Source of the DNA: Cenarchaeum sp.
GTDB taxonomy: Archaea > Thermoproteota > Nitrososphaeria > Nitrososphaerales > Nitrosopumilaceae
Reading direction: 5' to 3'
DNA length: 64,000 nt
Assembly (NCBI GenBank): GCA_965206845.1
Contig: OZ242221.1
Location: forward strand, 896,001 to 960,000
Position numbers and translations under genes: made by a program. Below, in pieces: positions 36,080 through 56,097 of this stretch; position 1 is the first letter of the stretch; every line of letters begins with the position of its first letter. The notes under the pieces are model-generated. The model saw only the letters and a list, made by a program, of their open reading frames with translations, ran no database searches and was not told the DNA's origin.

Positions 36080-37540
36080 CTATACATCAAAGTACAGGTA
36101 GAACTCGTGCGGATGGGGACGGACGGCGATATCTCTCTGATCCTTTCTCTCCAGCTCTATGATCTTGTCTATCACCTCGTCCTTAAAGATGGGTTTCAGA
36201 AAGATCCTGTCACTTTCAAGCTCAAGCAGCGCCTCGCCTAGGCTTGCAGGCAGCACGCCTATTCCGTGCTTTCTCCTCTCCTCCTTTGTCATCTTGAAGA
36301 TGTCCTCCTTTACTTGGTCTCCCGGGTCGGTCTTCTTCTTGACGCCGTCAATACCTGCTGCCAGCACCGACGAAAACACGAGATAGGGGTTTGCAGACGG
36401 GTCTGGCGCCCGGAACTCCAGTCTCTTGAGGTGCGCATAGTCCCTTCCCTCAAAATGTCTGGGTATCCTCACAATAGCAGATCTGTTGCTGCCGCTCCAG
36501 GCAACATACACCGGTGCCTCGTACCCAGGCACCAGTCTGTGGTAAGAGTTTGTGGTGGGGTTTGAGATCGCACACAGTGCATTTGCGTGATCCAGAATTC
36601 CGCCACAAAAGTACCTTCCAACCTGGCTCAATTCGCCATCCTGGCCCTCCTCAAAGAAGACGTTCTCGTCATCCTTCCACAGGCTTACATTGGTGTGCAT
36701 TCCCGAGCCCGAATCCATGGAGATGGGCTTGGGCATCATGGTTGCAATCTTGCCAAACCGCTTTGCAACGTTCCTTATTACAAACTTGTAGGACTGTGTG
36801 GCATCGGCGGAGTTTGTCAGGTAGTCATACTTTATGTCGATCTCACACTGGCCGGCGGTGGCCACCTCGTGATGGTGATTATCGCACAGGATGCCAAAGT
36901 TTTCACTCAACACGTTCACACACTCATTCCTAAACGGCGTAAGCGTATCAGACGGCGTACTGGGATAGTAGCCTTCCTGCAGCCCCATGGGATATCCGGT
37001 GCCTTCTTGGGACCACGGGGCCTCTACGGACTCGATCGAGTACGACTGTCCCTTGTAGGGAGTCAGAACATCCCAATGAACCTTGTCAAACACGAAGAAC
37101 TCCACCTCGGGGCCCCAGGCACTGTAATCAAAACCGGCGGTCTTTACCCACTCCTCGGCCCCCTGTGCTATCCCGCGTGGGTCGCGCGAGAGCCTTCCCC
37201 GGCCTGCGCCCCAGTACACATCGCAGAGGAGTCGGGCGGTCTTGTTTTCCTCATACCATGGAATGACCGCAAAGGTGCTGGGATCCGGCTTTAGGATCAG
37301 ATCCGAGTCGTCTATACTGGTAAATCCCAAAATGGACGAGCCGTCCAGCTTTGGCAGGCCATCCTTCATCTGTTTGGGCGTGAACATGTTGGTCGAGATG
37401 GTGGTGTGATGAAACCTGCCGGTCAGGCCGGTAAACTGCAGATCTAGAAACTTGATGTTCTCTTCCTTGATCTTTGCAAACACATCTTCTGACGAGAACG
37501 ACACCTGAACCGGCTCCCCATCTATTACTCTATACGGCAA
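36080..37540 (-). CDS. glnA: Glutamine synthetase type I, paralog 1
   Basis: LDGSSI, GPEVEF, HHEVATAGQCEI, GSGMH, PGYEAP, RLEFRAPD. Confidence 0.95.
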   Translation of the reverse strand: MPYRVIDGEPVQVSFSSEDVFAKIKEENIKFLDLQFTGLTGRFHHTTISTNMFTPKQMKDGLPKLDGSSILGFTSIDDSDLILKPDPSTFAVIPWYEENKTARLLCDVYWGAGRGRLSRDPRGIAQGAEEWVKTAGFDYSAWGPEVEFFVFDKVHWDVLTPYKGQSYSIESVEAPWSQEGTGYPMGLQEGYYPSTPSDTLTPFRNECVNVLSENFGILCDNHHHEVATAGQCEIDIKYDYLTNSADATQSYKFVIRNVAKRFGKIATMMPKPISMDSGSGMHTNVSLWKDDENVFFEEGQDGELSQVGRYFCGGILDHANALCAISNPTTNSYHRLVPGYEAPVYVAWSGSNRSAIVRIPRHFEGRDYAHLKRLEFRAPDPSANPYLVFSSVLAAGIDGVKKKTDPGDQVKEDIFKMTKEERRKHGIGVLPASLGEALLELESDRIFLKPIFKDEVIDKIIELERKDQRDIAVRPHPHEFYLYFDV

Positions 37541-43366: not shown

Positions 43367-44278
43367 CTAGACGTCCAGCGATTCCTTGAGGCCCTTGTAG
43401 CGGTTCCGTATTGTTACCTCGGTAACGTTGGCCGCCTCGGCAATGTCCCGCTGCGTCTTGTCCTCACCGTTCTTTACGCAGGACAGGTACAGCGCTGCGG
43501 CGGCAAGTCCCATGGGGTCCTTGCCCGCAGAGACCTCGTGCTTCTGGGCCTCCTTGAGCACCTTGATTGCGTACCGCTTTGTCTTTTCGACTATGCCGAT
43601 TCTACTGGCAATTCTTGCAACACATTGGATCGAGTCGGTTACCGGCATCTTCAGATCCAGCTCCTTTACCAGCAGCCTGTAACACCTAGCGATATCCTTG
43701 CGCTTGATGTTGGCTGCCTGCTCCACGTCCTTGAGGTTTCTCGGCGTGGACGTGTCCCTGCATGCGGCGTACAGCGCCGAGGCCATGAGTGCGGAGATGG
43801 ATCTTCCCCTGACCAGGCCCTTCTCCAACGCCTTTCTGTATATGTATGCCGCCTTTTCTATCACCGCATCAGATATTGCCAGCTTGTCCTTGAGCCTGTT
43901 CAGCTCCGAGAACGCCTGCCGGAAGTTACGGTCTACCGGCTCATGTACCTGGCTCCTGCTGTCCCACGTTCTCAGCCTCTCTATGGTGGACTTCATCGAC
44001 GTCGTGAGGGGCCTGCCCGACGCGTCCTTGTTTATCGGGTTTATTATGGTGGCAAGTCCCATGTCGTGCATCGTAAGCGAGGTGGGGGCTCCAGCCCTGG
44101 CACGGTCCCCGCGCTCATCCTGGGTAAACGAGCGCCACTCAGGACCATACTCTTGGAGCTTCTCAGACAGAACGAAACCGCAGTTGGAGCAGAACGTCTC
44201 CCCTGACTCAGTGTCTGTTACCATCTTTCCCTTGGCGCACCTTGGGCACTGCTCCTTGGGATTCTGTTGCTTTACCAT
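43367..44278 (-). CDS. tfb: Transcription initiation factor IIB (conserved type)
   Basis: CPRC..CSNC Zn ribbon, GPEWRSF, HDMGLAT, GKDPMG, VTEVTIRNRY. Confidence 0.97.
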   Translation of the reverse strand: MVKQQNPKEQCPRCAKGKMVTDTESGETFCSNCGFVLSEKLQEYGPEWRSFTQDERGDRARAGAPTSLTMHDMGLATIINPINKDASGRPLTTSMKSTIERLRTWDSRSQVHEPVDRNFRQAFSELNRLKDKLAISDAVIEKAAYIYRKALEKGLVRGRSISALMASALYAACRDTSTPRNLKDVEQAANIKRKDIARCYRLLVKELDLKMPVTDSIQCVARIASRIGIVEKTKRYAIKVLKEAQKHEVSAGKDPMGLAAAALYLSCVKNGEDKTQRDIAEAANVTEVTIRNRYKGLKESLDV

Positions 44279-44456
44279 ATCACCACGATTTTAGGATACT
44301 TGTAATGAGCTTATTTATGAATCAACAACTTTTTGGTTCGAACTGTGCGATTTTGTCAGCCTCGTTCTTGTCCGCCCTGAAAAAGGCGGATCCCACGACT
44401 CCGGCACAATTCCCAAAGGTAGAAAAACCAAGCCTACCAATACCTACTGATCCAGA

Positions 44457-45371
44457 TTGAGAGGCGCGATGATACTGACGGCATTTGCCCTTTCTGCCTG
44501 CTTCTGCGCGGCGTACGGCGAGACGGTAAGGCAGACCATGGAAGGCGGCATGGATGTGGAGATTACCCATGCCGACAGCGTGGTCGCCGGCAGAACATTT
44601 CCCATCACCGTCCTGATCCAGAACAACGGATGGGAGGACAAACAGAATGTCAGCCTGACGTTTGATGCTGGCAGTGCCTTCACACCGGTGCTGGATGACT
44701 CGATTCTGGTACCAATAATGCACCAAGGCGGCTCCTACGGCCGTACGCTAGAGTTTGCGGCTCGCCCCGACGCGTCACCGGGCATACACTTTATCAACGT
44801 GGACTACTCCCAGGTTCTTCTTGCCGGCAACAACGATCCGCAGGAGCCCACCAAAACGAGCATCGCCATACCGATAACGGTGCAGGAGAGGGCCAGGGTG
44901 AGCATACACACCACCATTCCCGAGTCGATCTTCACGGGAGCGGAGTTTCCGGTCACCGTGGAGATCATCTCAGATGACGCGGACATATCTGATGTGGAGC
45001 TGCAGATTCTCCCGCCACAGGACATCCAGTTTCGTGGAGAGACCCTGCACACCTTCTCGTCCATCCAGAAGGGCAGCTCCGTCAGCGTCACCTCCAGAAT
45101 CACAACCCCCGACCAAGAGATAGCAGAGGAGTACCGGGTGCCGTTTCAGATCCATCTGACATACAGCGACGACGCAGGGGATCTGGTTACGGACTCCGAG
45201 ACGGTCTCCACAACGCTGCGGCCTAGGACGTTCATGGAGCTTACTACGGACGGCGGAATATGGGTGGGCAGCTTCTTCATCGCTCCCTATGTCAGCTTGG
45301 GAACACTAATCGGGATCCCCGCAGGGGCGATCTTGACGCTGATAGTCCGAAGAAGGACCGGAAGAAGATGA
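44457..45371 (+). CDS. Secreted, membrane-anchored Ig-like (S-layer/COG1361-like) protein
   Basis: Signal peptide, two beta-rich domains and a C-terminal TM followed by RRR; start may be ATG 44469. Confidence 0.7.
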   Translation: MRGAMILTAFALSACFCAAYGETVRQTMEGGMDVEITHADSVVAGRTFPITVLIQNNGWEDKQNVSLTFDAGSAFTPVLDDSILVPIMHQGGSYGRTLEFAARPDASPGIHFINVDYSQVLLAGNNDPQEPTKTSIAIPITVQERARVSIHTTIPESIFTGAEFPVTVEIISDDADISDVELQILPPQDIQFRGETLHTFSSIQKGSSVSVTSRITTPDQEIAEEYRVPFQIHLTYSDDAGDLVTDSETVSTTLRPRTFMELTTDGGIWVGSFFIAPYVSLGTLIGIPAGAILTLIVRRRTGRR

Positions 45372-46906
45372 GGACTCTGTGGCCGGTTCTGGTGTGCGCC
45401 GTCTTGGCCGTCTCGTTCTCTGCTGCCTACGGGCACGGGGTAGGCTCTGAGGTTCTGGATCCCGTCCAGCTGGGTGACAGGGAGGTTGCACTGGAGATCA
45501 GCTCATCGAGATACGATCCTGACAACCCCGAAAAGGAGATCACCTTCTCCCTTGCCGATGTGGATACCGGCGTTACCGTGCGGGACGTGACCTTTGAGAT
45601 TACGGGGTACAAGGGGGATACCTTCCTGTTTAACGGAACGTTTCGGGCGCCCGACGGGATCTTTGTCTTTGCCCTGCGGCCAGGCGACTCTGAAGAGGTG
45701 ACCCTGGAGAAGGCCGACCGTTCCGGCCTCTTCGGTTCCCTGCTGGGACTAAAGGAGGAGATCATATACGCAGACAGCAAGCTCTTCGGCACCGGCGGGC
45801 TGTACAAGTTTGATGTCAGGATTACCACCGCAGAGTCGTTCTCGAATCAACTGGATCCGCCGATCGAGTACAAGGTCGGCCTCTCTATACCGCAGAAGAC
45901 CTTCTATGAGATCGACGATCCAAACTTTGGCACTACAGAGGTGAGCATCATCACATACTATGACGAGGTTACCGGCTTTCGGTATGACCCGAGCGTCAAC
46001 GGGGTGTCATTTCACATGCCCTTTGACTGGAGCGCAGGGAACATCAACGAGACGGTGGCGGTTCACGAGGAGTTTGCGTTTCCAAAGACCTTTGGCGATC
46101 TCCTGTTTGCCGAGTATTCCGCAAGCGTCAACGGCCTGTCCGTGCCGGGGCGGGTGATTACCGTGGACAGCTTCATGGAGAACCAGACAGTAGTACATGT
46201 AGTGCTGGGCCAGAACGACCTGTTTGATCTGAGCGAGAGGCAGGCAGACGATATAGAGGGTATGGATCTTGTTTTGAGGGCAAAAGAGGGCAGCCCCCGG
46301 GGCACCATAACTGCCAACGGCCAGTTCCAGGTTACCCTTGACTGGGAACCCAAAGACATCCGCTCTGGCCAGGAGACGGTGTTCCACTTCCGCATCAGCG
46401 ATGTGTTCCTGCGGAACACGCCGGTGGCAGTAGATTATGACGTGTCGTTAGTCAGAGACGACATCGTCATCTACTCGGGTACCGGAACAAGTACGGACTC
46501 GCAAGAGCAGCGCAACGAGTTTGTCGTATCCATCCCGGAGAACTCGTCTGGTCCCGTAACGGTGCGCTTTGAGAACTTGGCAGACAACCGCTTTGCCCGA
46601 ACCGCAATACCGATAATAGTTGACAGGGTACAGCCGGAAGTGGCGATTCCCGGGTGGGTAAAGGCCTCCGCCGGGTGGTGGGCTCAGGGTGTGATAGACG
46701 ACCAGACATTTGTTGCCGGCATCGAGTATCTGGTCAGGCAGGAGGTTATACAGGTGTCTGGCATCCAAGAAGCCGGCGACAGTTCGGCGGCAATCCCCGG
46801 GTGGGTAAAGGCCTCCGCCGGGTGGTGGGCTCAGGGTGTGATAGACGACCAGACCTTTGCAAACGGAATAAAGTTCCTGATCGAGGCCGGCATAATATCT
46901 ACCTGA
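45368..46906 (+). CDS. Secreted surface protein with a duplicated C-terminal IPxWVK..AGWW domain
   Basis: Signal peptide ending AYG-H; two IPGWVKASAGWWAQGVIDDQTF repeats of the type common in thaumarchaeal surface proteins. Confidence 0.8.
   Translation: MRTLWPVLVCAVLAVSFSAAYGHGVGSEVLDPVQLGDREVALEISSSRYDPDNPEKEITFSLADVDTGVTVRDVTFEITGYKGDTFLFNGTFRAPDGIFVFALRPGDSEEVTLEKADRSGLFGSLLGLKEEIIYADSKLFGTGGLYKFDVRITTAESFSNQLDPPIEYKVGLSIPQKTFYEIDDPNFGTTEVSIITYYDEVTGFRYDPSVNGVSFHMPFDWSAGNINETVAVHEEFAFPKTFGDLLFAEYSASVNGLSVPGRVITVDSFMENQTVVHVVLGQNDLFDLSERQADDIEGMDLVLRAKEGSPRGTITANGQFQVTLDWEPKDIRSGQETVFHFRISDVFLRNTPVAVDYDVSLVRDDIVIYSGTGTSTDSQEQRNEFVVSIPENSSGPVTVRFENLADNRFARTAIPIIVDRVQPEVAIPGWVKASAGWWAQGVIDDQTFVAGIEYLVRQEVIQVSGIQEAGDSSAAIPGWVKASAGWWAQGVIDDQTFANGIKFLIEAGIIST
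46649..46854 (+). repeat. 59-bp exact intragenic direct repeat
   Basis: 46649-46707 is identical to 46796-46854. Confidence 0.9.
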
Positions 46907-46907
46907 G

Positions 46908-47576
46908 CTATCTTCTTGTTATGGCTATGGCGGCGACGGCTATTCCGATGCCGCCTAGGGCGATTGCCACGTACGTGAGGCTGACACCCTGGCCTGACCT
47001 GGCCGCGTCCTGCACCACATCAAGTTCTTCGCTGATCTCCAAGGTCTGGTTCCTGAGGGCGGCGATCTCCGCCATGATGGCAACCTGCGCCTCAAGGATA
47101 TCTTGGTTCTCTCTCTCTGGAAACTCGATGTACCCCCGCTCGTCCACCTTGGGCGGGTGCATCGACAGGCTGACCACGGTGTCTGAGATCTTGCCCAGCA
47201 CGTTGACTTGGTAAAAGCCTGCCACCGTGGGATCCACAAAGGCATAGTACTTGCCGTCTATATTGTGGTCTGCCCTGAGCGGCAGGGTAATCCTGTCGGT
47301 CTTGTAGACCATCTGGATCTTGAGATCCTTTTCAAGGCCCGCAATTCCGTCATGAAAGCTCTGGGCTCCCGCACATGTGATGGGCTCGACGCCGGGGCAC
47401 TGGACCAGAGGGCTGATGAACAGCTCTATGCCGTTGGTCTCCCCGCTCACCACAGGCTCGTTCATCCAGCCGATCCCAATCCTGTACTTGTCGTCGATGG
47501 CATCAACCGTGTGGGCATGCGCCCCGGACAGCGGGGCAAGCGCCAACGCAAACACCACAAGCATCCAGATGCGCAT
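46908..47576 (-). CDS. Secreted membrane-anchored hypothetical protein
   Basis: Signal peptide AHA-H, IGWMNEP and a C-terminal TM. Confidence 0.75.
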   Translation of the reverse strand: MRIWMLVVFALALAPLSGAHAHTVDAIDDKYRIGIGWMNEPVVSGETNGIELFISPLVQCPGVEPITCAGAQSFHDGIAGLEKDLKIQMVYKTDRITLPLRADHNIDGKYYAFVDPTVAGFYQVNVLGKISDTVVSLSMHPPKVDERGYIEFPERENQDILEAQVAIMAEIAALRNQTLEISEELDVVQDAARSGQGVSLTYVAIALGGIGIAVAAIAITRR

Positions 47577-47649
47577 ACAGCGTGCTTGAACCCCCTTGAT
47601 ATAAAAAATTAGAGTGGTTTTTTTTGCGTTATTTCATTGGGTGTCCCAC

Positions 47650-49095
47650 TCAGCTGTCGGCATACATCGAAACCTCCCACGGTGTGGGGGTCTGGGCAAA
47701 CGCGGTGTATTCGTCGTACTTGAGCTCCATGTACCTGTCCAAGAAGTCCTTGGTAAACGTGGATACCAAAAACCCGTTGTCGCTTGAGAGCGAGTCCAGC
47801 GCCCCCTTGAGCGACAGCGGCAGGGCACCTATGCCGTATTCCCGCCTCTTGCCTGCAGAGAGCTTGTAGACGTTCTCATCCACCGGATCGCCGGGATCCA
47901 GCTTCCGTGTTATCCCGTCCAAGCCCGCCAGCAGAAGCGCCGCCTCCAGCAGGTAGATGTTCGCGGTGGGATCCGGCACCCTGTACTCTATCCTCTTGCT
48001 CCGCTCCTGGTTCCTGTTGTACATGGGAACCCGGATTGCGACGGATCTGTTGCCTATCCCCCAGCACAGGTGCACCGGGGCTTCAAACCCAGGCACCAGC
48101 CTCTTGTAGGAGTTGGTGGTGGGGTTTGAGATCGCACACAGCGCCCTTGCGTGATCCAGAATTCCGCCAATGTAGTAGCGCCCCGTCTGGCTGAGCTGCG
48201 CCACCGGATCATCGGGGTCAAACATGACGTTGATGTTGTCGTTCCAGAGGCTCTGGTGCGTGTGCATGGCAGAGGCGTTGTCCCCGAAGATCGGTTTTGG
48301 CATGAACGTTGCGACCGTATTTCTTCGCTTTGCCTTTACCTTGACGACGTTCTTTACCGTGATTATGCTGTCTGCCATGGCCTTCATCTCACCGTATGCC
48401 AGATTGATCTCGCACTGGCCCGATGTCGCAACCTCGTGGTGCTCCGCCTCGATCCTGATCCCGAAGTACTTGTAGAGATCGTCACAGACGTCCTTCCGGA
48501 ACGTCTCCAGTGTGTCCTTTGGCTGCGACGGGTAGTATCCCTCCTTGATGGCTATGGCGGTGCTTATGTTTCCCTTGGCCCAGGGCGACTCCTTTGACTC
48601 GATCGAGTAACCCGAGCCGCCGTAGGAGTGGGTGGCGGCAAAGGGCGACGGGTACACGTTGATCGCATCAAACACAAAGAACTCGAGCTCCGGCCCCCAA
48701 TTGGTGTGTGTTATTCCCTTCTGGGAGAACGCCTCGGCCGCCTTGTGGGCTATGCCCCGGGAGTCCCTGTTGTAGCGCGACGTCGACGATGTGTTGCTCT
48801 CGTACAGATCACAGATCATGCGCGCGTTCTTTCTCTGGCCGTTGTCGTAATCCGGAGGCAGGATCTGAAAAGTGCCCGGATCCGGCTTTAGTATCATGTC
48901 TGAGTGGTTGATCTGCTTGAACCCCACTATGGAGCTGGCATCCAGCTTCTCAAGGCCGTGCCGGAAGCTCTCCTCGTCTATTGCATACGACGGCATCCCT
49001 ACGCGGTGCAGCTCGCCGAAGATGTCCACAAACCAAAAGTCAAAAAACGTGATGTTCTGTTTCTCGGCAGCATCCAAAACACCCTTGGCGTCCAC
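47650..49095 (-). CDS. glnA: Glutamine synthetase type I, paralog 2 (divergent active-site loop)
   Basis: LDASSI, GPELEF, HHEVATSGQCEI, DNASAMHTHQSLW, PGFEAP, RIEYRVPD. Confidence 0.93.
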   Translation of the reverse strand: MDAKGVLDAAEKQNITFFDFWFVDIFGELHRVGMPSYAIDEESFRHGLEKLDASSIVGFKQINHSDMILKPDPGTFQILPPDYDNGQRKNARMICDLYESNTSSTSRYNRDSRGIAHKAAEAFSQKGITHTNWGPELEFFVFDAINVYPSPFAATHSYGGSGYSIESKESPWAKGNISTAIAIKEGYYPSQPKDTLETFRKDVCDDLYKYFGIRIEAEHHEVATSGQCEINLAYGEMKAMADSIITVKNVVKVKAKRRNTVATFMPKPIFGDNASAMHTHQSLWNDNINVMFDPDDPVAQLSQTGRYYIGGILDHARALCAISNPTTNSYKRLVPGFEAPVHLCWGIGNRSVAIRVPMYNRNQERSKRIEYRVPDPTANIYLLEAALLLAGLDGITRKLDPGDPVDENVYKLSAGKRREYGIGALPLSLKGALDSLSSDNGFLVSTFTKDFLDRYMELKYDEYTAFAQTPTPWEVSMYADS

Positions 49096-49205
49096 TAGTG
49101 CAACACCCCCGTACGGCAGCTACCGGATCCCGCGTTCACGTGGTTGAATTGCCGCATCATACCCTGCACACGAATGATTCCTACCCGTCCCAAACCACTA
49201 CGGAG

Positions 49206-50567
49206 CTAGCTCTTCTCCAAGGTTCTTGCACCCGAGTATCTTGTCTTCAGCTCGTCCTCAAAGAAGAACTTGTCCTCAAACGCTGGCTTGAGGTCGTCCA
49301 GCCAGATCGCGCCCTCGTCATACTCTGCATAAAACGGCCTTTGTACCCAGTCCGGGTTACGTCCCTGCAGGAACCGCAGGGCTATCACGCGCTTGCCTGC
49401 GACCACCGGCGTGCCCTCCACCTGTACCTTTCCCGGGGTGGCAGACATGCTGGGGCCTCTGACCGTCCTTCCCAACCCGCTTACCTGCTTGTATGCGTCC
49501 CTGAAGATCTGGTGTGCCCTTGTCAGCGATATGCCAAAGTAGTGCTGGGCGCCGGTGTCCCTTACCACAAACATGTAGTAGGGTATGCATCCCAGCTGAA
49601 CCTGGTCCCTCCACATCTTTGCCCAGACGCCGGCATCGTCATTGATGTGGGACAGCAGGGGCGACTGGGTTCTGATCTCGGTTCCGGTCGCCCGGACCAC
49701 CCTTATTGCGTCCTTGACGGCGGGAGTGGACAGCTCGACGTGGTGGTTAAAGTGTGCCATGAGCGCCAGGTGTAGCCCCCTGCCGGTGACCCTCTCAAAG
49801 AGCCCCAGCGTCTCCTTTGCGTCATTGTCTGTAATGAACTTGTAGGGCCAGTATGCCAGAGCCTTTGTCCCTATTCTGATCGTCTTGAGGTTTGGAAGGT
49901 TGGCGTCAAGCAGCGCGTCTATGTATGTCTCAAAGATGCGGGCCTTCATTATCATGGGGTCGCCCCCGGTAAACAGGACATCGGAGATCTCTGGATGCTC
50001 TGAGATGTACTGAACCATCTGGTCTGATTCCCTCATGGCAAATTTCATCTCATCCATTCCCACAAACTGCGGCCACCTAAAGCAGAAGCTGCAGTATGCG
50101 TGGCATGTCTGGCTCTGGCTGGGAAAGAACAGGCAGGTCTCCTTGTACTTGTGCTGCATTCCATAAAGCTGGGTGCCGTCCTTTAGGACCGGCACGTTGA
50201 GCTCCAGCTGACCTGCGGGGTGGGGATTTAGCTGCAGGCGTATCTCGTTTGCAACGGCCGCCACGGTCTTCTTGTCCGCCCCGTCCCTGAGCGTCTGGGC
50301 CATCCTTTCAAAGTGGCGCTCCTTGAGCATGTTTCTCTGCGGAAACGTCAGGACAAATATCGGGTCATTGGGTACGTCGTTCCAGTCTATCAGCTGCTCT
50401 ACCACGTAGTTGTTTGCCTTGAAGGGAAGGACGTTTCCGACCACCTCCATCTCAAAGCGCTGCTCCTCTGTGAGCTTTTGGATCTGGGGCAGGCCGCGGA
50501 AGTTGCCTAGGGTGTACGATTTTATCGAGGGGGGCTTGCCGGTGTCCCATACCGTTTCCTGTAACAT
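49206..50567 (-). CDS. kamA: KamA family radical SAM/PLP 2,3-aminomutase (substrate uncertain)
   Basis: QHKY.ET, CHAYCSFCFR, VLFTGGDP, IRIGTK, HFNH, QSPLL, PYYMF, SATPGK. Confidence 0.88.
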   Translation of the reverse strand: MLQETVWDTGKPPSIKSYTLGNFRGLPQIQKLTEEQRFEMEVVGNVLPFKANNYVVEQLIDWNDVPNDPIFVLTFPQRNMLKERHFERMAQTLRDGADKKTVAAVANEIRLQLNPHPAGQLELNVPVLKDGTQLYGMQHKYKETCLFFPSQSQTCHAYCSFCFRWPQFVGMDEMKFAMRESDQMVQYISEHPEISDVLFTGGDPMIMKARIFETYIDALLDANLPNLKTIRIGTKALAYWPYKFITDNDAKETLGLFERVTGRGLHLALMAHFNHHVELSTPAVKDAIRVVRATGTEIRTQSPLLSHINDDAGVWAKMWRDQVQLGCIPYYMFVVRDTGAQHYFGISLTRAHQIFRDAYKQVSGLGRTVRGPSMSATPGKVQVEGTPVVAGKRVIALRFLQGRNPDWVQRPFYAEYDEGAIWLDDLKPAFEDKFFFEDELKTRYSGARTLEKS

Positions 50568-50955
50568 GTCATTATGTTGTAAAGTATCAGTTGTTAAATG
50601 TTAAGATCGGCGGGCGGCGGAGAACTGGGCCTGTCTGGACGCTTCTGTCCGTTTCGTGAAGATCTGGATGTAAATAATGACAGATGCGACAATGTGGTAT
50701 CTTGGTGCGCATGCGGCCTGGCCGTACACTGCAGACGGTGCCAGACTGCTGGCCGCGCCAGACATGGGAACCATGGCAGGCGCGCATGCCCGTGCCCAAA
50801 TGGAAGCTTTTGGCTGCACGCGCCGCGCATATGGGACATTGCCCGTCTTCTGCGCGGGCGTGGCATGCGAAGGATATTGCAGGACGCGCAAGGCTCTGCG
50901 GAGTTGTAGCCACACAGTTGATATTTTAGTGTGGCGGCACACAGGTGATAACATC

Positions 50956-52701
50956 ATGGCTGAAGACGACGTAATTGGAACCGTGGCGCAGCAGGCAAGC
51001 GAGTTTGCCGGCCTCTGGCAGCTGGTTACCGCCTCTGAGTCGCTTCAGGTGGCTCTTGGCGCACTGATATTGGGGCTGTTGGGAATCGCCGTGGCGTACA
51101 GAAAGTTTTCGAAGCGGCTCAAATCGCGCAAGATCAGCTATGCCCGCCCGCACCTCTCCAAGTTCATCATGGTTCTGGTGATGCCCCTCTTTGCAATCGC
51201 CCTGTTCTCATCCATCAACGCCTACATTCAGTTCTTTGAGCTCTTCAGCACTGCGGCGCTCGGGACAGGGGCGGACGCGGCGGCCACAGAAACCTTTGCA
51301 AGGATACTCAACAGCGTGAACGTGCTGGTAGTAGGGTATACCGTGGCCCAGCTGATTCCCATCATACTCAACAAGAGAACAAAGTCGATACTAGAGCAGG
51401 AGGACTTTGCCAGCTGGCGGGGTCTGCGGGGGTTCAGGGACGACGACGGGGATCTCTTTCACCGGCTGTTCAGGTGGAACCCCCCGGCGCACGCCCCATC
51501 AGAGATCGCCGCAGAGGAGTTTGCCGAAAAACTGAAGACCGAGGAGGGAAGAAGATCCCTAGAAGCGTTTCACACCTCAAAAGGGCTCCAGATCGGAAGC
51601 TACACAAAACTTACAGACGATCCCTTTGAGGAATGGAAGAAGTCAGAGAGGGTCAAGTACAACAGGTATCTTGAGGACTGCCTCTCGGACAACAACGAGT
51701 CAGGCCGCAAGCTGAAGATGGGCCAGGATCCGGAAGAGATCTATCCGATAGACACCTGGCGCGAGGAGAAGCGCATTGGCGGTTTTGGGCCGATCGTGGC
51801 GGCCTACAGGCCACCAGGCTATGCGTTCAAGATACGCAAGGATCTGCCCAAGTCGATCGGCCAGATACTTCCCATAGCGATCTTTGCGGCGGTCATTCTT
51901 GGCGTGGTGAGCTCGTGGGGGGTGGATCTGTTCGTGCTGGCCACGGCCACCGGAGGCTTTGCCATTGGGCTGGGCTTGGCGCTACAGGAGACCATGCAGA
52001 ACTGGTTTGCGTACATCATGATCAGAAAGGACAAGATCGTCGGCGAGGGTGACCGGATTCAGCTAGAGAGCGGGTATAACGGCTACGTCCACAAGATCAC
52101 CGCCAGGGTCACGTACATACGCCACGGCCTCAACGAGTCCTTTGCCATAATTCCCACACGGCAGCTGGTCAGCGCCCAGATCATCAACTACACCAAGGAG
52201 TTGAGAATGGTGCCGGCAGTTGTGGACGTCGGGGTATCGTACCTGAACAACCCCCGGGGGGTTGCGGCGATACTGGTCAAAGTCGGCAGGCGGGCCATGA
52301 AGGAGGCAATCGACTACAAGGGGAGGCACCTCGTAGTGCAGAGAAGGTGTCCGTACCTGGATGAGAACAAGCCCAGCTGCGGCTGTGACAAGGGCATAGT
52401 GGTGGATATCGACCACCCGGTGGTGAGATTCAACGCGTTCAACGACTCGTCACTGGACTTTTCGGTGTGGGTGTTCGTCCGCGACTTTGGCTCCCAGTTC
52501 AAGGTCAAGACTGACCTGCGCATGATAATGTACGAGGAGTTCAAAAAGTACGACATCAGGATACCCTGGCCCATCAGGACCATATACCAGGGCGACGAGA
52601 ATCGTGAGGCCGAGGAGATCGCCCGCCTCAAGGACGAGCGCACGCAGGTAAGGGATGAGTATGGCTACGGAGACATAGGCAAGGGAGGAGACGACGAGTA
52701 G
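50956..52701 (+). CDS. mscS: Small-conductance mechanosensitive channel family protein
   Basis: GLGLALQETMQNWFA, GDRIQL, IINYT, VGVSY, FNDSSLDF, IRIPWP. Confidence 0.88.
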   Translation: MAEDDVIGTVAQQASEFAGLWQLVTASESLQVALGALILGLLGIAVAYRKFSKRLKSRKISYARPHLSKFIMVLVMPLFAIALFSSINAYIQFFELFSTAALGTGADAAATETFARILNSVNVLVVGYTVAQLIPIILNKRTKSILEQEDFASWRGLRGFRDDDGDLFHRLFRWNPPAHAPSEIAAEEFAEKLKTEEGRRSLEAFHTSKGLQIGSYTKLTDDPFEEWKKSERVKYNRYLEDCLSDNNESGRKLKMGQDPEEIYPIDTWREEKRIGGFGPIVAAYRPPGYAFKIRKDLPKSIGQILPIAIFAAVILGVVSSWGVDLFVLATATGGFAIGLGLALQETMQNWFAYIMIRKDKIVGEGDRIQLESGYNGYVHKITARVTYIRHGLNESFAIIPTRQLVSAQIINYTKELRMVPAVVDVGVSYLNNPRGVAAILVKVGRRAMKEAIDYKGRHLVVQRRCPYLDENKPSCGCDKGIVVDIDHPVVRFNAFNDSSLDFSVWVFVRDFGSQFKVKTDLRMIMYEEFKKYDIRIPWPIRTIYQGDENREAEEIARLKDERTQVRDEYGYGDIGKGGDDE

Positions 52702-52766
52702 GTGCGCCTGTGCCGCATCGCCGCCGATTCTCAAAATTTAAGAGTGTCCTCATAACCGTTGTAACA

Positions 52767-53651
52767 TTGGACGGCGTGACAGTTGTTGCCGGAGACGCAT
52801 CGGCCGGCTTGGCAGAAAGCCTGGCGACGGGACTCGGCGCACCGCTCATCAGGGCCGGCCTGAGAACATTTCCCGACGGTGAGGGCAAGATCACCTTTGG
52901 CGCAACGCCGGAGAGCGGAAGGGCGGTGGTGGTACAGTCCCTGTGCCCGCCCGTTGACTCGAATTTGGTCCAGGCGCTGCTCATGATTGCAAAGGCCAGG
53001 GAGTTCTCCTCTGATGTTACGGCCGTAATCCCATACATGGGATACGCCAGGCAGGACAGGGAGTTTCTTCCCGGAGAGGCAGTGGCAATCCAAACCATCG
53101 CAAGGCTCTTCAGGGCAGTCGATGCATCAAGGCTGATCGTGGTGGACATCCACAGCAAGACCGCCTTGGATCACTTCGGGGCCGGTGCCAGAAACGTCAC
53201 TGCCATACCCGAGCTGGCAAGGCACTTTGAGGAGATGAGCCTGAAGGACCCCTTGGTGGTATCACCTGATGCCGGGGGCGCCGCCAGGGCAGAGGGGTTT
53301 GCCGGACTGTGCGGCCATGATTTTATCGCGCTTGAAAAAAAACGGGACAAGAACACCGGCAGCGTCAGCGTATCTGTTCCGGTTCCCGACATAATCCAAG
53401 ATAGGGATGTGATACTGGTGGACGACATGATAAGCACCGGGGGCAGCATAGCCAAGGCGGCAGAACTCCTCCGGGGGCGCGGGTGCCGGAGAATCTTTGC
53501 GGCGTGCACCCATGCGCTGCTGGTGGGCGATGCCCGGCAGCGGATAATGGATGCGGGCGTCTCTGAAATTGTCGGCACCAACACGGTTCCCGGCCCTGCC
53601 GACGTGGTGGACGTATCCGGGGCGATCATAAAAGGGATGGCGCATTGCTAG
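52767..53651 (+). CDS. prs: Ribose-phosphate pyrophosphokinase
   Basis: FPDGE, PYMGYARQD, VSPDAGG, VDDMISTGGS. Confidence 0.95.
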   Translation: MDGVTVVAGDASAGLAESLATGLGAPLIRAGLRTFPDGEGKITFGATPESGRAVVVQSLCPPVDSNLVQALLMIAKAREFSSDVTAVIPYMGYARQDREFLPGEAVAIQTIARLFRAVDASRLIVVDIHSKTALDHFGAGARNVTAIPELARHFEEMSLKDPLVVSPDAGGAARAEGFAGLCGHDFIALEKKRDKNTGSVSVSVPVPDIIQDRDVILVDDMISTGGSIAKAAELLRGRGCRRIFAACTHALLVGDARQRIMDAGVSEIVGTNTVPGPADVVDVSGAIIKGMAHC

Positions 53652-53669
53652 GTTCGGCCTTGTAGAGGT

Positions 53670-54578
53670 GTGACGGAGACGAGACTCATATTCCTGGGAA
53701 CTTCGGCTGCCCTGCCCACTCGGGGGCGCGGACTGTCGTGTGTCTGCCTTGAAAGGGAGGGCGAGGTGCTGATGTTTGACGCCGGCGAGGGGGCGCAGAT
53801 GGCATACCTGCGATCCGGCCTGGGCTGGAACAAGCCCATGAAGATCTTTGTGACGCACCTGCACGGCGACCACTGCATCGGCATACTGGGACTGCTGCAG
53901 ACCATGTCTCTAAAGAAGCGGAGCCGGGGGCTGGAGATATACGGCCCCGCCGGCATAGACGAGTTTCTGGCCGCAAACATCCGTATACTGAACTTTGGGG
54001 TGTCGTTTCCCGTAATCATCAATCCCGTCAGCGACGGCGTTGTGGCAGACGAGACATCCTACGTGGTATCTGCGTGCAGGGCGGCCCACTCTGTCGAGGC
54101 GTACTCGTACGTCTTTGAGGAGCGACAGAGGCCGGGAAGATTTAACCGCGAACGGGCAGAGGAACTCCAGGTGCCCCGGGGGGAGCTGTGGGGACGGCTG
54201 CAGGCCGGGCAGCATGTTACGGTGGACGGCCGTGTTGTAAAGCCCGGGGACGTCCTCGGGCCGTCTCGGCGCGGCAAAAAGATCGGAGTCTCCGGCGATA
54301 CCAGACCCACCGGCCCCCTGCAGGAGTTCTTTCAGGGATGCGACTACCTGGTCTTTGACTCCACCTTTATGGATGATATGGGGGACAAGGCGCTAAAGAC
54401 GTTTCACTCCACGGCCAGAGAGGCGGCCACCCTGGCAAGGGATGCGGGCGTGTCCAACCTGGTTCTGACACACTTCTCGGCAAGGTACGACGACGCGCAG
54501 GCGCTAGTTGATGAGGCGGGTGCGGTCCACGGCTCGGTGGTCGCCGCCGAGGATCTTCTGGAGATCGAGATAGAGTAG
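53670..54578 (+). CDS. rnz: Ribonuclease Z
   Basis: [31 protein letters not shown]. Confidence 0.95.
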
Positions 54579-54680
54579 ACTGGCCCGCATCCGGGTGCCC
54601 GAACACGGACATGGGTATCATCTTGCGCACACAAGATTAATTCCCCAAGCTTACATGTGGCAGGGATCCGGAAGGCGCGC

Positions 54681-54986
54681 CTAGCTGTCCGGCGCGGCAT
54701 CGCCGCTGGCATCTCCAGAGAGCGCATCCTGTATGGGGTCAATCAGCCACTCCTGCACCCCAATGTCCTCCACAAACGCCGCCGTATCCTCCTGCAGGAC
54801 GACTGCCCTCTCATCGACCGTATCAAGCGAGGTTACTATCCCGTCTTCCATCTGGCTCGCAACGTCTGCGATCTCCTGCCTGTCATCAATATCCTCCACG
54901 CTGATACCCGCTATCACGTCTGTGAGCGGAAAGAAGACGAACGCGCCTACAACCAACACCACACCTATAATTATCCAACGGAGCAT
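54681..54986 (-). CDS. Acidic membrane-anchored hypothetical protein
   Basis: N-terminal TM, D/E-rich. Confidence 0.6.
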   Translation of the reverse strand: MLRWIIIGVVLVVGAFVFFPLTDVIAGISVEDIDDRQEIADVASQMEDGIVTSLDTVDERAVVLQEDTAAFVEDIGVQEWLIDPIQDALSGDASGDAAPDS

Positions 54987-55139
54987 CTTTTCATCCCCAA
55001 TTCGGCAACTTTCTTTTTTACTCTAGAGCTAAAATTTTTGGTCAAACTTGCTTGATTTTTGTTGAGCTGGTTCCACTTGGGGATGTGGCGGCCCTTTGCG
55101 CATACGCCACCGGTCTTTCGGGCCTGCCAAGTCCGGAGG

Positions 55140-55547
55140 CTACGGCGCGGCCGGGTCAGAGGCCAGCCACCGGATTACCTCTTCAATGTCAGGCGACTGT
55201 ATCGTGACCTTGATCGGGCCCAGCGGAGACTCGTCGACGCCAGAACAGAGCGCTATCGTGCCGGCACAGGCCGCCTGCTTGTTGAGATAGAGCCAGGTCG
55301 AGTCGCCGTGCAGGTTTGATTCAAGGTGCCTCCTGTACAGCTTGTGGCTTCGCCGGGAGTTTGTGGCATCCCGTATCTTCTGCAGGATCTCGAGCCCGTC
55401 GGATCTGAATCCGGCGCCGTCCGGGCCAGCCGTGACCGTGACACCCTCAAAGATCTGCGATACCGCGCGCACCACCTTCTGCGGATCCTCTGACGGGTAC
55501 ACCGGGCAGTGGCAGGACACCACACAGCTACACTCTGGCATCCTCAT
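55140..55547 (-). CDS. UPF0201-like RNA-binding protein
   Basis: VYPSED..KV, LNKQAA..G, ESPLGPI. Confidence 0.82.
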   Translation of the reverse strand: MRMPECSCVVSCHCPVYPSEDPQKVVRAVSQIFEGVTVTAGPDGAGFRSDGLEILQKIRDATNSRRSHKLYRRHLESNLHGDSTWLYLNKQAACAGTIALCSGVDESPLGPIKVTIQSPDIEEVIRWLASDPAAP

Positions 55548-56097
55548 CCCGTCTCACCCAGCGTAAAATTATGCCGTGAACCATCTCGACCAGCCCGTCG
55601 ACGCTCATGTTGTTGTTTGAGACGGTCTCGTCTGCCAGCGCAATGGAAGTGCTGATGCCTACCCCCAGCTCCCTGTCGTCCCTATTCTGAAAGCCCGCAC
55701 GAGTCTTGGGATCGTCTGCTCTTCTGCGCCTGGTAAGAAAGCCAAAGCGGGTGTCTGTGGACGCGTGAACCGAGAGAATCCTGACGTTGCCAAGCCTCCG
55801 GAGCACCTCGATCTCGGCGTTGGATCGAATTCCATCCACTATGACTGTATCTGTTCCGGCCTTCCGGATCTGGGGCGCTATCAGCATGGCCACCGCTCCA
55901 GGCCCGTCCCTCTCCCGGAGCTCTAGCATGAGCGATCCCAGATTCTCTCCCGTCGGCTCCAGGTTCCGCCTTCTGGCCTCTGCCCTTACGGCGTTGCCCA
56001 TGTTTGCCACCTCATAACCGCGGGCCTGCAGCCCGTCTGCAATCGTAGACTTGCCCGCCCCAGGCATCCCGGTAAGGCAGACGATCAGTTTTGGCAA
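55528..56097 (-). CDS. UPF0200-like P-loop kinase
   Basis: TGMPGAGKS, VDGIRS..E, RDDREL..G. Confidence 0.85.
   Translation of the reverse strand: MPKLIVCLTGMPGAGKSTIADGLQARGYEVANMGNAVRAEARRRNLEPTGENLGSLMLELRERDGPGAVAMLIAPQIRKAGTDTVIVDGIRSNAEIEVLRRLGNVRILSVHASTDTRFGFLTRRRRADDPKTRAGFQNRDDRELGVGISTSIALADETVSNNNMSVDGLVEMVHGIILRWVRRDEDARV

Follow-up and report, generated by a model that had tools for sequence, protein, structure and literature searches.

A putative glutamate 2,3-aminomutase gene paired with a large MscS-type channel gene in a Cenarchaeum genome, and its possible bearing on archaeal beta-glutamate

Which gene supplies the beta-glutamate of ammonia-oxidising archaea (AOA)? Heal et al. 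(2021, PMC8269262) found that, among the identified metabolites of Nitrosopumilus maritimus SCM1, beta-glutamic acid ranks first in abundance, at 730 mM, and that it increases with depth in ocean particles; this pool, the largest small-molecule pool reported for AOA, is yet without an assigned gene in the searchable literature. The question is raised by a locus in a 64,000-nucleotide stretch of a Cenarchaeum sp. genome (contig OZ242221.1, positions 896,001 to 960,000 of the forward strand; hereafter the window), where a gene for a KamA-like radical S-adenosylmethionine (SAM), pyridoxal phosphate (PLP)-dependent aminomutase precedes a second glutamine synthetase (GS) gene and diverges from a gene for a large MscS-type channel. 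The searchable literature, judged by titles and the beginnings of abstracts, links no such aminomutase to AOA, the matches dealing mostly with cobalamin or cobalt. Apart from Heal et al., beta-glutamate and AOA meet there only in one paper that cites this work and in a review of archaeal phylogenomics, where the term stands once.

The best-supported explanation, to which the evidence lends a probability of roughly 0.65, is beta-glutamate synthesis combined with an MscS release valve. The aminomutase, as a radical SAM, PLP-dependent glutamate 2,3-aminomutase of IdnL4 type, would convert L-glutamate into beta-glutamate in one step; beta-glutamate would accumulate as the main organic osmolyte of the cell; and the divergent large MscS would serve as an emergency valve that releases solutes on osmotic downshift, the two genes having probably been inherited and lost together. 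A first-pass annotation of the window had proposed the same step and the same valve, both of which are supported here, and had added the amidation of beta-glutamate by the second GS (GlnA2) to give beta-glutamine, a step that is only possible. The genes concerned are the following.

49206 to 50567, minus strand: KamA-like radical SAM/PLP aminomutase gene, 453 amino acids, with a CxxxCxxC motif and a fold like that of lysine 2,3-aminomutase (LAM)
50956 to 52701, plus strand: large MscS-type channel gene, 581 amino acids, with PF00924 and PF21082; the open reading frame (ORF) was listed from 50677
47650 to 49095, minus strand: glnA2, a type I GS paralogue, 481 amino acids, above the TIGR00653 cut-off
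49096 to 49205, minus strand: spacer of 110 bp from the aminomutase gene to glnA2

The two minus-strand genes lie where the first-pass annotation had placed them, co-oriented and 110 bp apart. The genome is closed, archaeal, 1.65 Mb in length and 99.99% complete, and it carries an archaeal-type amoA along with genes for TFB, the thermosome and GINS; its proteins have close homologues labelled Nitrosopumilaceae.

Subfamily and predicted substrate of the aminomutase

Cys155, Cys159 and Cys162 of the CxxxCxxC motif, together with Arg164, are invariant in all aligned rows (30/30 from AOA, 71/71 from bacteria and 11/11 from the outgroup), and Lys380 is likewise invariant in all 112; through an ungapped register that runs past the end of the profile alignment, Lys380 probably corresponds to the PLP-binding Lys337 of LAM. 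The family profile matches LAM of Clostridium subterminale (2A5H) at an E value of 1e-35. An AlphaFold model of the protein (predicted local distance difference test 90.9, predicted template modelling score 0.90) has the same structure as its best match (E 1e-17, template modelling (TM) score 0.61-0.68 over 389-393 columns), while the runner-up fold reaches only E 7e-6. The curated models score the protein below their cut-offs, at 133 bits against a cut-off of 199.2 for the generic KamA model TIGR00238 and at 108 bits against 525 for the lysine 2,3-aminomutase model TIGR03820, and ten of its relatives also remain under the curated KamA cut-off. The label 'KamA-family' that the gene first received is thus borne out by fold and motif and not by the curated score, and the combination of a LAM-like fold with scores below the cut-offs points to a KamA-fold enzyme of a distinct subfamily.

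The residues at the putative substrate-binding positions differ from those of LAM. In the profile alignment, Asp293 of LAM aligns without gaps with Arg336; all AOA rows (30/30) and all bacterial orthologues (71/71) have this Arg, and none of the more distant relatives (0/11) does. Ser373 occupies the position of LAM Asp330 in the ungapped register that runs on to Lys380. We take Asp293 and Asp330 of LAM to be the residues that bind the epsilon-ammonium group of lysine; a cationic Arg336 in the pocket would disfavour a basic substrate and favour an acidic one. The fold and the motif replacement are observations, and it is the enzyme's substrate that we infer from them.

Gene content narrows the choice further. 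The closed genome holds a single match to the KamA family, and the absence of an adjacent beta-lysine acetyltransferase gene (ablB), pointed out in the first-pass annotation, extends to the whole of it, as TIGR03827 (AblB) has no match anywhere in the genome in a search to which control genomes responded. With one KamA-family gene and no AblB, nothing competes for the beta-glutamate role. A search of the genome for ectoine synthase, made without a positive control, likewise came up empty.

An exhaustive search with the aminomutase-like protein returned 319 representatives at E<=1e-30, and a scan of species genomes returned 597 relatives, of which the best 80, ranked by likeness to the query, were examined, with habitats read from names only. 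These 80 comprise 9 Nitrososphaeria and 71 bacteria; 24 of the bacteria belong to Marinobacter, Halomonas or Billgrantia, and many other genera among the 80 bear names that suggest saline habitats. The bacterial orthologues are 51-64% identical to the protein of the window, and the nearest clusters in a protein atlas are mostly Pseudomonadota. A quick maximum-likelihood tree unites the 30 AOA rows in a single clade, with a support of 99 in the SH-like approximate likelihood ratio test (SH-aLRT), and places three Gammaproteobacteria nearest to them (support 90). A search of 16 genomes from 16 other families of the order did not find the gene. This distribution would fit a single acquisition in the ancestor of the family, the direction of transfer aside. 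Around the bacterial genes, no Pfam family occurs more than four times among 76 flanking ORFs at 38 loci, and such stand-alone genes are expected of a one-enzyme pathway.

Matches were also found in 48 plasmid records; in 19 of these the match spans 86% or more of the query, with an identity of 47-54%. Gene contexts were inspected for seven of the 48. The homologue on a plasmid of Streptomyces sp. NBC_00334 (49% identity over 396 residues) keeps the CxxxCxxC motif, the R-D-T motif and the PLP lysine, and its neighbours encode a type I polyketide synthase (PKS), a proline iminopeptidase-family hydrolase, a PLP-dependent 'aminotransferase' and an AMP-binding protein. According to one passage of a review (PMC11350588), the biosynthesis of incednine-type macrolactams employs IdnL4, which makes beta-glutamate from L-glutamate, and IdnL3, a beta-glutamate-specific PLP enzyme that decarboxylates it; the gene layout on the Streptomyces plasmid matches the architecture described there. 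A homologue on an Amycolatopsis plasmid lies among genes for a PLP aminotransferase, a CoA transferase, MaoC dehydratases, CoA ester lyases and a Glu/Leu/Phe/Val dehydrogenase, a setting that fits C5-dicarboxylate metabolism. This catabolic-looking cluster could itself be a route of beta-glutamate utilisation. Three further plasmid homologues adjoin genes for non-ribosomal peptide synthetases (NRPS) or PKS, one from Nocardia lies near genes for a GNAT protein and an MFS transporter, and one from Rhodococcus is accompanied by genes for a cupin, a SidA-type N-hydroxylase, a class I tRNA-ligase-like protein and a saccharopine-dehydrogenase-like protein. Additionally, one metagenomic protein is a fusion of a SidA/IucD-type (Lys/Orn-type) N-hydroxylase with the aminomutase. 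Arg336 is kept both in this fusion and in the Rhodococcus homologue; the fusion and the Rhodococcus cluster presumably belong to pathways that form N-N bonds.

Taken together, the replacement of the two Asp residues, an identity of about 50% to aminomutases of incednine-type clusters, the presence of a sole KamA-family gene and the published concentration of 730 mM give good support to the step from glutamate to beta-glutamate.

The divergent channel gene and the intergenic region

The channel protein matches PF00924 at 31.4 bits (threshold 20.2) and PF21082 at 28.8 bits (threshold 21). That a divergent MscS gene is present, as first annotated, is correct; its listed start at 50677 is not, and a start at 50956 is preferred. 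All orthologues compared (16/16) begin at the equivalent of residue 94 (MAE...) of the listed ORF, and because they are without the 93-residue head the protein is taken to have 581 residues; contigs of this gene from RNA libraries start at 50970-51022.

Within the family, 20 other genera with the aminomutase gene and four without it (97-99% complete) were surveyed, and linkage of the module recurs across the 20, more often than chance would give. Of the 20 loci fetched, 15 have the large MscS gene divergent from and adjacent to the aminomutase gene; a further genus has it so across a contig break, and the pairing is thus found in 16/20 genera despite rearrangement of both flanks. In the remaining four the large MscS gene is nearby and rearranged, elsewhere, fragmentary, or not found, in one genus each. 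At eight of nine named Nitrososphaeria loci, MscS adjoins the aminomutase gene (seven divergent, one upstream on the same strand), and at the ninth it is divergent at a distance of 1.6 kb. The large MscS was not found in any of the four aminomutase-less genera by a query that matched 5/5 positive controls, and three of the four retain a smaller MscS-type ORF of 312-336 amino acids. Since these four genera fall at no fewer than three places on the GlnA1 tree, the joint absence is probably a repeated event. Synteny and phyletic pattern are thus established, and the conserved divergent pairing together with the joint absence supports the link between channel and module, through which the functional coupling of the two is inferred, as is the osmolyte role of beta-glutamate in this organism. 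A 2026 paper in ISME J on hypo-osmolarity treats mechanosensitive channels only as constitutively expressed and contains nothing on beta-glutamate.

The region between the two divergent genes contains one conserved element.

50568 to 50955, no strand: intergenic region from which the aminomutase and MscS genes diverge, up to the revised MscS start
50591 to 50602, plus strand: conserved motif TTGTTAAATGTT, 24-35 nucleotides upstream of the aminomutase ATG

In 22 related loci, this intergenic region measures 76-304 bp. The motif reads AACATTTAACAA on the strand of the aminomutase gene and is a likely TATA-box region. In the form TTGTTAAAKGTT, the 64-kb window has it a single time, at 24-35 nucleotides upstream of the aminomutase ATG, where 0.02 occurrences would be expected, and its core TTGTTAAA is found in 13/23 intergenic regions of related loci. 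Seven Nitrosopumilus-like loci carry, on the MscS-proximal side of the divergent region, the sequence AACCTTTGTATTC, which shares an AACCTTT core with the aminomutase-proximal motif as read on the gene's strand; the window has no MscS-side copy.

Two RNA-Seq libraries labelled as sponge metagenome contain contigs that are 95-99% alike to the window and cover all three genes, evidence from which, as it consists of contigs, neither expression level nor transcript ends can be read. The aminomutase contigs are deeper in word depth than those of glnA2 and mscS, although depths of this kind cannot rank genes, and 50696-50867 is without cover by RNA-library contigs. The 110-bp spacer, which has no run of more than three T and no TTTAA-like box, is bridged by one contig (48365-49244) from a run that is only presumed to be RNA; the aminomutase gene and glnA2 may be co-transcribed. 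DNA near-identical to 47600-52750 occurs in many sequencing runs, and its presence in the sponge-metagenome RNA libraries suggests that the organism or a close strain may live in sponges.

The second glutamine synthetase and the flanking genes

The other GS gene of the window stands apart from the module.

36080 to 37540, minus strand: gene for GlnA1, the housekeeping GS, given for context only and outside the module; an orthologue is present in 24/24 other genera of the family searched

It lies about 10 kb off, as originally noted, and its product is 46% identical to GlnA2. GlnA2 itself scores 505 bits against the TIGR00653 cut-off of 429. Aligned with Salmonella GS (2gls), it has matching ligands for the metal, ATP and glutamate, with the canonical catalytic residues kept. 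Orthologues of at least 67% identity are present in 13/20 aminomutase-bearing genera, in 12/13 of which GlnA2 is directly downstream of the aminomutase, and GlnA2 was found in none of the four aminomutase-less genera (0/4) and none of the genomes of other families (0/16). Four of the five loci titled Nitrosopumilus have no GlnA2 beside the aminomutase. In a tree with two bacterial outgroup rows only, GlnA2 forms its own clade on a long stem (SH-aLRT 99), outside the clade that unites GlnA1 with most GS of other families. Its glutamate-binding loop reads DNASAMH in 18/18 sequences, with Ala for the second Gly of DNxSGMH, a change seen in 0/32 other GS; Ala at the first loop glycine, by comparison, is shared with the sole GS of other families. 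A four-residue insertion and about 20 other fixed differences are also private to GlnA2. Moreover, glutamate synthase (GOGAT, PF01645) had no match in the closed genome in a search to which 14/14 control genomes responded, so that a GS-GOGAT cycle does not account for the second GS. GlnA1 of the family has its own peculiarity, a loop reading D[S/A]GSGMHTN where other GS read DN[G/A]SGMHxH; it thus has other residues in place of the Asn and the second His that are conserved elsewhere.

By position and phyletic pattern, GlnA2 would appear to be an accessory, lineage-specific GS tied to the aminomutase. According to review literature, a Methanohalophilus GS turns beta-glutamate into beta-glutamine at high salt, and this precedent makes the same activity chemically reasonable for GlnA2. 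All catalytic residues being canonical, we consider it possible but doubtful that GlnA2 is a beta-glutamine synthetase. The fuller scheme, in which a dedicated GlnA2 would amidate anionic beta-glutamate to zwitterionic beta-glutamine beside an adjacent valve, with a possible nitrogen reserve as a consequence, is a shade more doubtful again.

Beyond GlnA2, a 222-residue ORF (46908-47576, minus strand) encodes a protein with a signal peptide, a C-terminal membrane anchor and no Pfam match; it follows GlnA2 in many related loci and, at loci that have no GlnA2, comes immediately after the aminomutase gene. Two overlapping ORFs at 44457-46906 on the plus strand, one CARDB-like (304 amino acids) and one without a family (548 amino acids), keep their synteny with the TFB gene (43367-44278) at several related loci. 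An Rfam scan of 44000-56000 (E<=1) gave one match of chance level and no Na+ or c-di-AMP riboswitch.

Competing explanations and known systems

Several points weigh against beta-glutamate synthesis with a release valve. The protein falls below the cut-off of all six NCBIfam models related to KamA, including, at 84.9 bits against 650, TIGR04368 for the clostridial glutamate 2,3-aminomutase, an enzyme that we assume to have Lys and Asn, not Arg and Ser, at the two pocket positions. A genome labelled Nitrosotalea also bears the gene, which is thus not confined to marine lineages, and no salt-sensing riboswitch was found at the window locus or at 11 bacterial loci, where Rfam gave 0 matches at the gathering threshold. 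The N-hydroxylase fusion and cluster show several pathways to be served by the aminomutase family, within which substrates may differ, and the suggested kinship with IdnL4 derives from cluster architecture and the one review passage. Two different substrates have to be considered. Public annotation would make the enzyme a lysine 2,3-aminomutase that forms beta-lysine: the source names of its homologues say so, and its best PDB match is LAM. With a TIGR03820 score of 108 against 525 bits, both lysine-binding Asp positions replaced and no AblB found in the genome, this can be given hardly any credence. The enzyme might instead act on another non-basic amino acid, AOA beta-glutamate being made by another route. 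All curated cut-offs are missed, the family is represented in NRPS, PKS and N-hydroxylase clusters of various kinds, and PMC1224877 records an aminomutase-free route to beta-glutamate once proposed for methanogens. Set against these, Arg336 points to an acidic substrate, the incednine-type cluster context favours glutamate, and the genome has only this KamA-family gene. Aspartate, moreover, would be returned by its own reaction, as a 2,3-amino shift on aspartate regenerates aspartate. Another non-basic substrate is, on this balance, improbable, and glutamate remains the preferred one.

The remaining doubts concern the partners of the aminomutase. The pairing with MscS might be inherited gene order without functional coupling, for all AOA copies fall in one clade, so that the synteny counts are not independent, MscS accounts for only 2/76 bacterial flanking ORFs, and the channel, as the genome's only PF00924 match, may be the general valve of the cell. 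Against mere inheritance speak the joint lack of the large MscS and KamA in 4/4 genera at three or more places on the GlnA1 tree, the smaller MscS genes that remain in three of these four, and the survival of the pairing in 16/20 genera in spite of rearrangements on both flanks; we regard it as an unlikely account of the pairing. For GlnA2, the choice is much closer. An ordinary alpha-GS isozyme, for instance one that is differently regulated or tolerant of very high beta-glutamate, would leave beta-glutamate as the sole special product, and that possibility falls only slightly short of even odds. It agrees with the complete set of canonical catalytic residues and the TIGR00653 score above cut-off, with the 7/20 aminomutase-bearing genera and the four of five Nitrosopumilus-titled loci that do without an (adjacent) GlnA2, and with the Gly-to-Ala change at the first loop glycine, which recurs in the sole GS of other families. 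It agrees less well with the restriction of GlnA2 to aminomutase-bearing genomes and its adjacency in 12/13, with the lack of a GOGAT match, which leaves a second GS unexplained by glutamate supply, and with the private Gly-to-Ala change (18/18 versus 0/32) and four-residue insertion.

If beta-glutamate synthesis with a release valve is the correct explanation, the solute would become traceable in metagenomes and metatranscriptomes, and the annotation 'lysine 2,3-aminomutase' would have to be corrected in AOA and in hundreds of bacteria. It would also point to an aminomutase that functions in aerobes, which pathway designers are seeking, and provide a basis for testing the formation of beta-glutamine by the second GS. 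Should GlnA2 in fact make beta-glutamine, a subset of AOA would have a two-step osmolyte system and possibly a large intracellular nitrogen reserve.

Compared with known systems, the enzyme shares with LAM (KamA/AblA, 2A5H) the fold (TM 0.61-0.68), the radical SAM motif, the Arg for the alpha-carboxylate and the PLP lysine, and differs from it in an identity of only 21-22%, the replacement of Asp293/Asp330 by Arg/Ser, a score below TIGR03820 and the lack of an AblB partner. The clostridial glutamate 2,3-aminomutase (Eam, TIGR04368) and a methanogen enzyme would catalyse the same proposed reaction. At 85 versus 650 bits, the window enzyme represents a lineage separate from clostridial Eam, whose pocket presumably has Lys/Asn in place of Arg/Ser. 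For the methanogen glutamate 2,3-aminomutase, Tunckanat and colleagues reportedly proposed an osmolyte role in 2022, the role suggested here. A link between an osmolyte synthesis gene and an MscS-type valve in a marine AOA is also said to exist in the ect-mscS arrangement of N. maritimus (attributed to Widderich and colleagues, 2016); the solute and the channel are different ones there, and the layout in the window is divergent and not co-transcribed. Methanohalophilus portucalensis, according to review literature, resembles the window in having a GS that acts downstream of beta-glutamate, with the difference that an ordinary GS makes beta-glutamine there, whereas a dedicated paralogue would do so here.

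The closest likeness is to IdnL4 of the incednine pathway in Streptomyces, which would belong to the same KamA-like subfamily, a relation drawn through the 49%-identical homologue on the Streptomyces plasmid and not through IdnL4's own sequence. That homologue differs from the window protein in having Val at position 373 where the latter has Ser. The settings differ as well, as the window gene lies beside a channel gene and a GS gene instead of a PKS and has no IdnL3-like decarboxylase gene nearby, and the product, consumed in the incednine pathway, would here accumulate.

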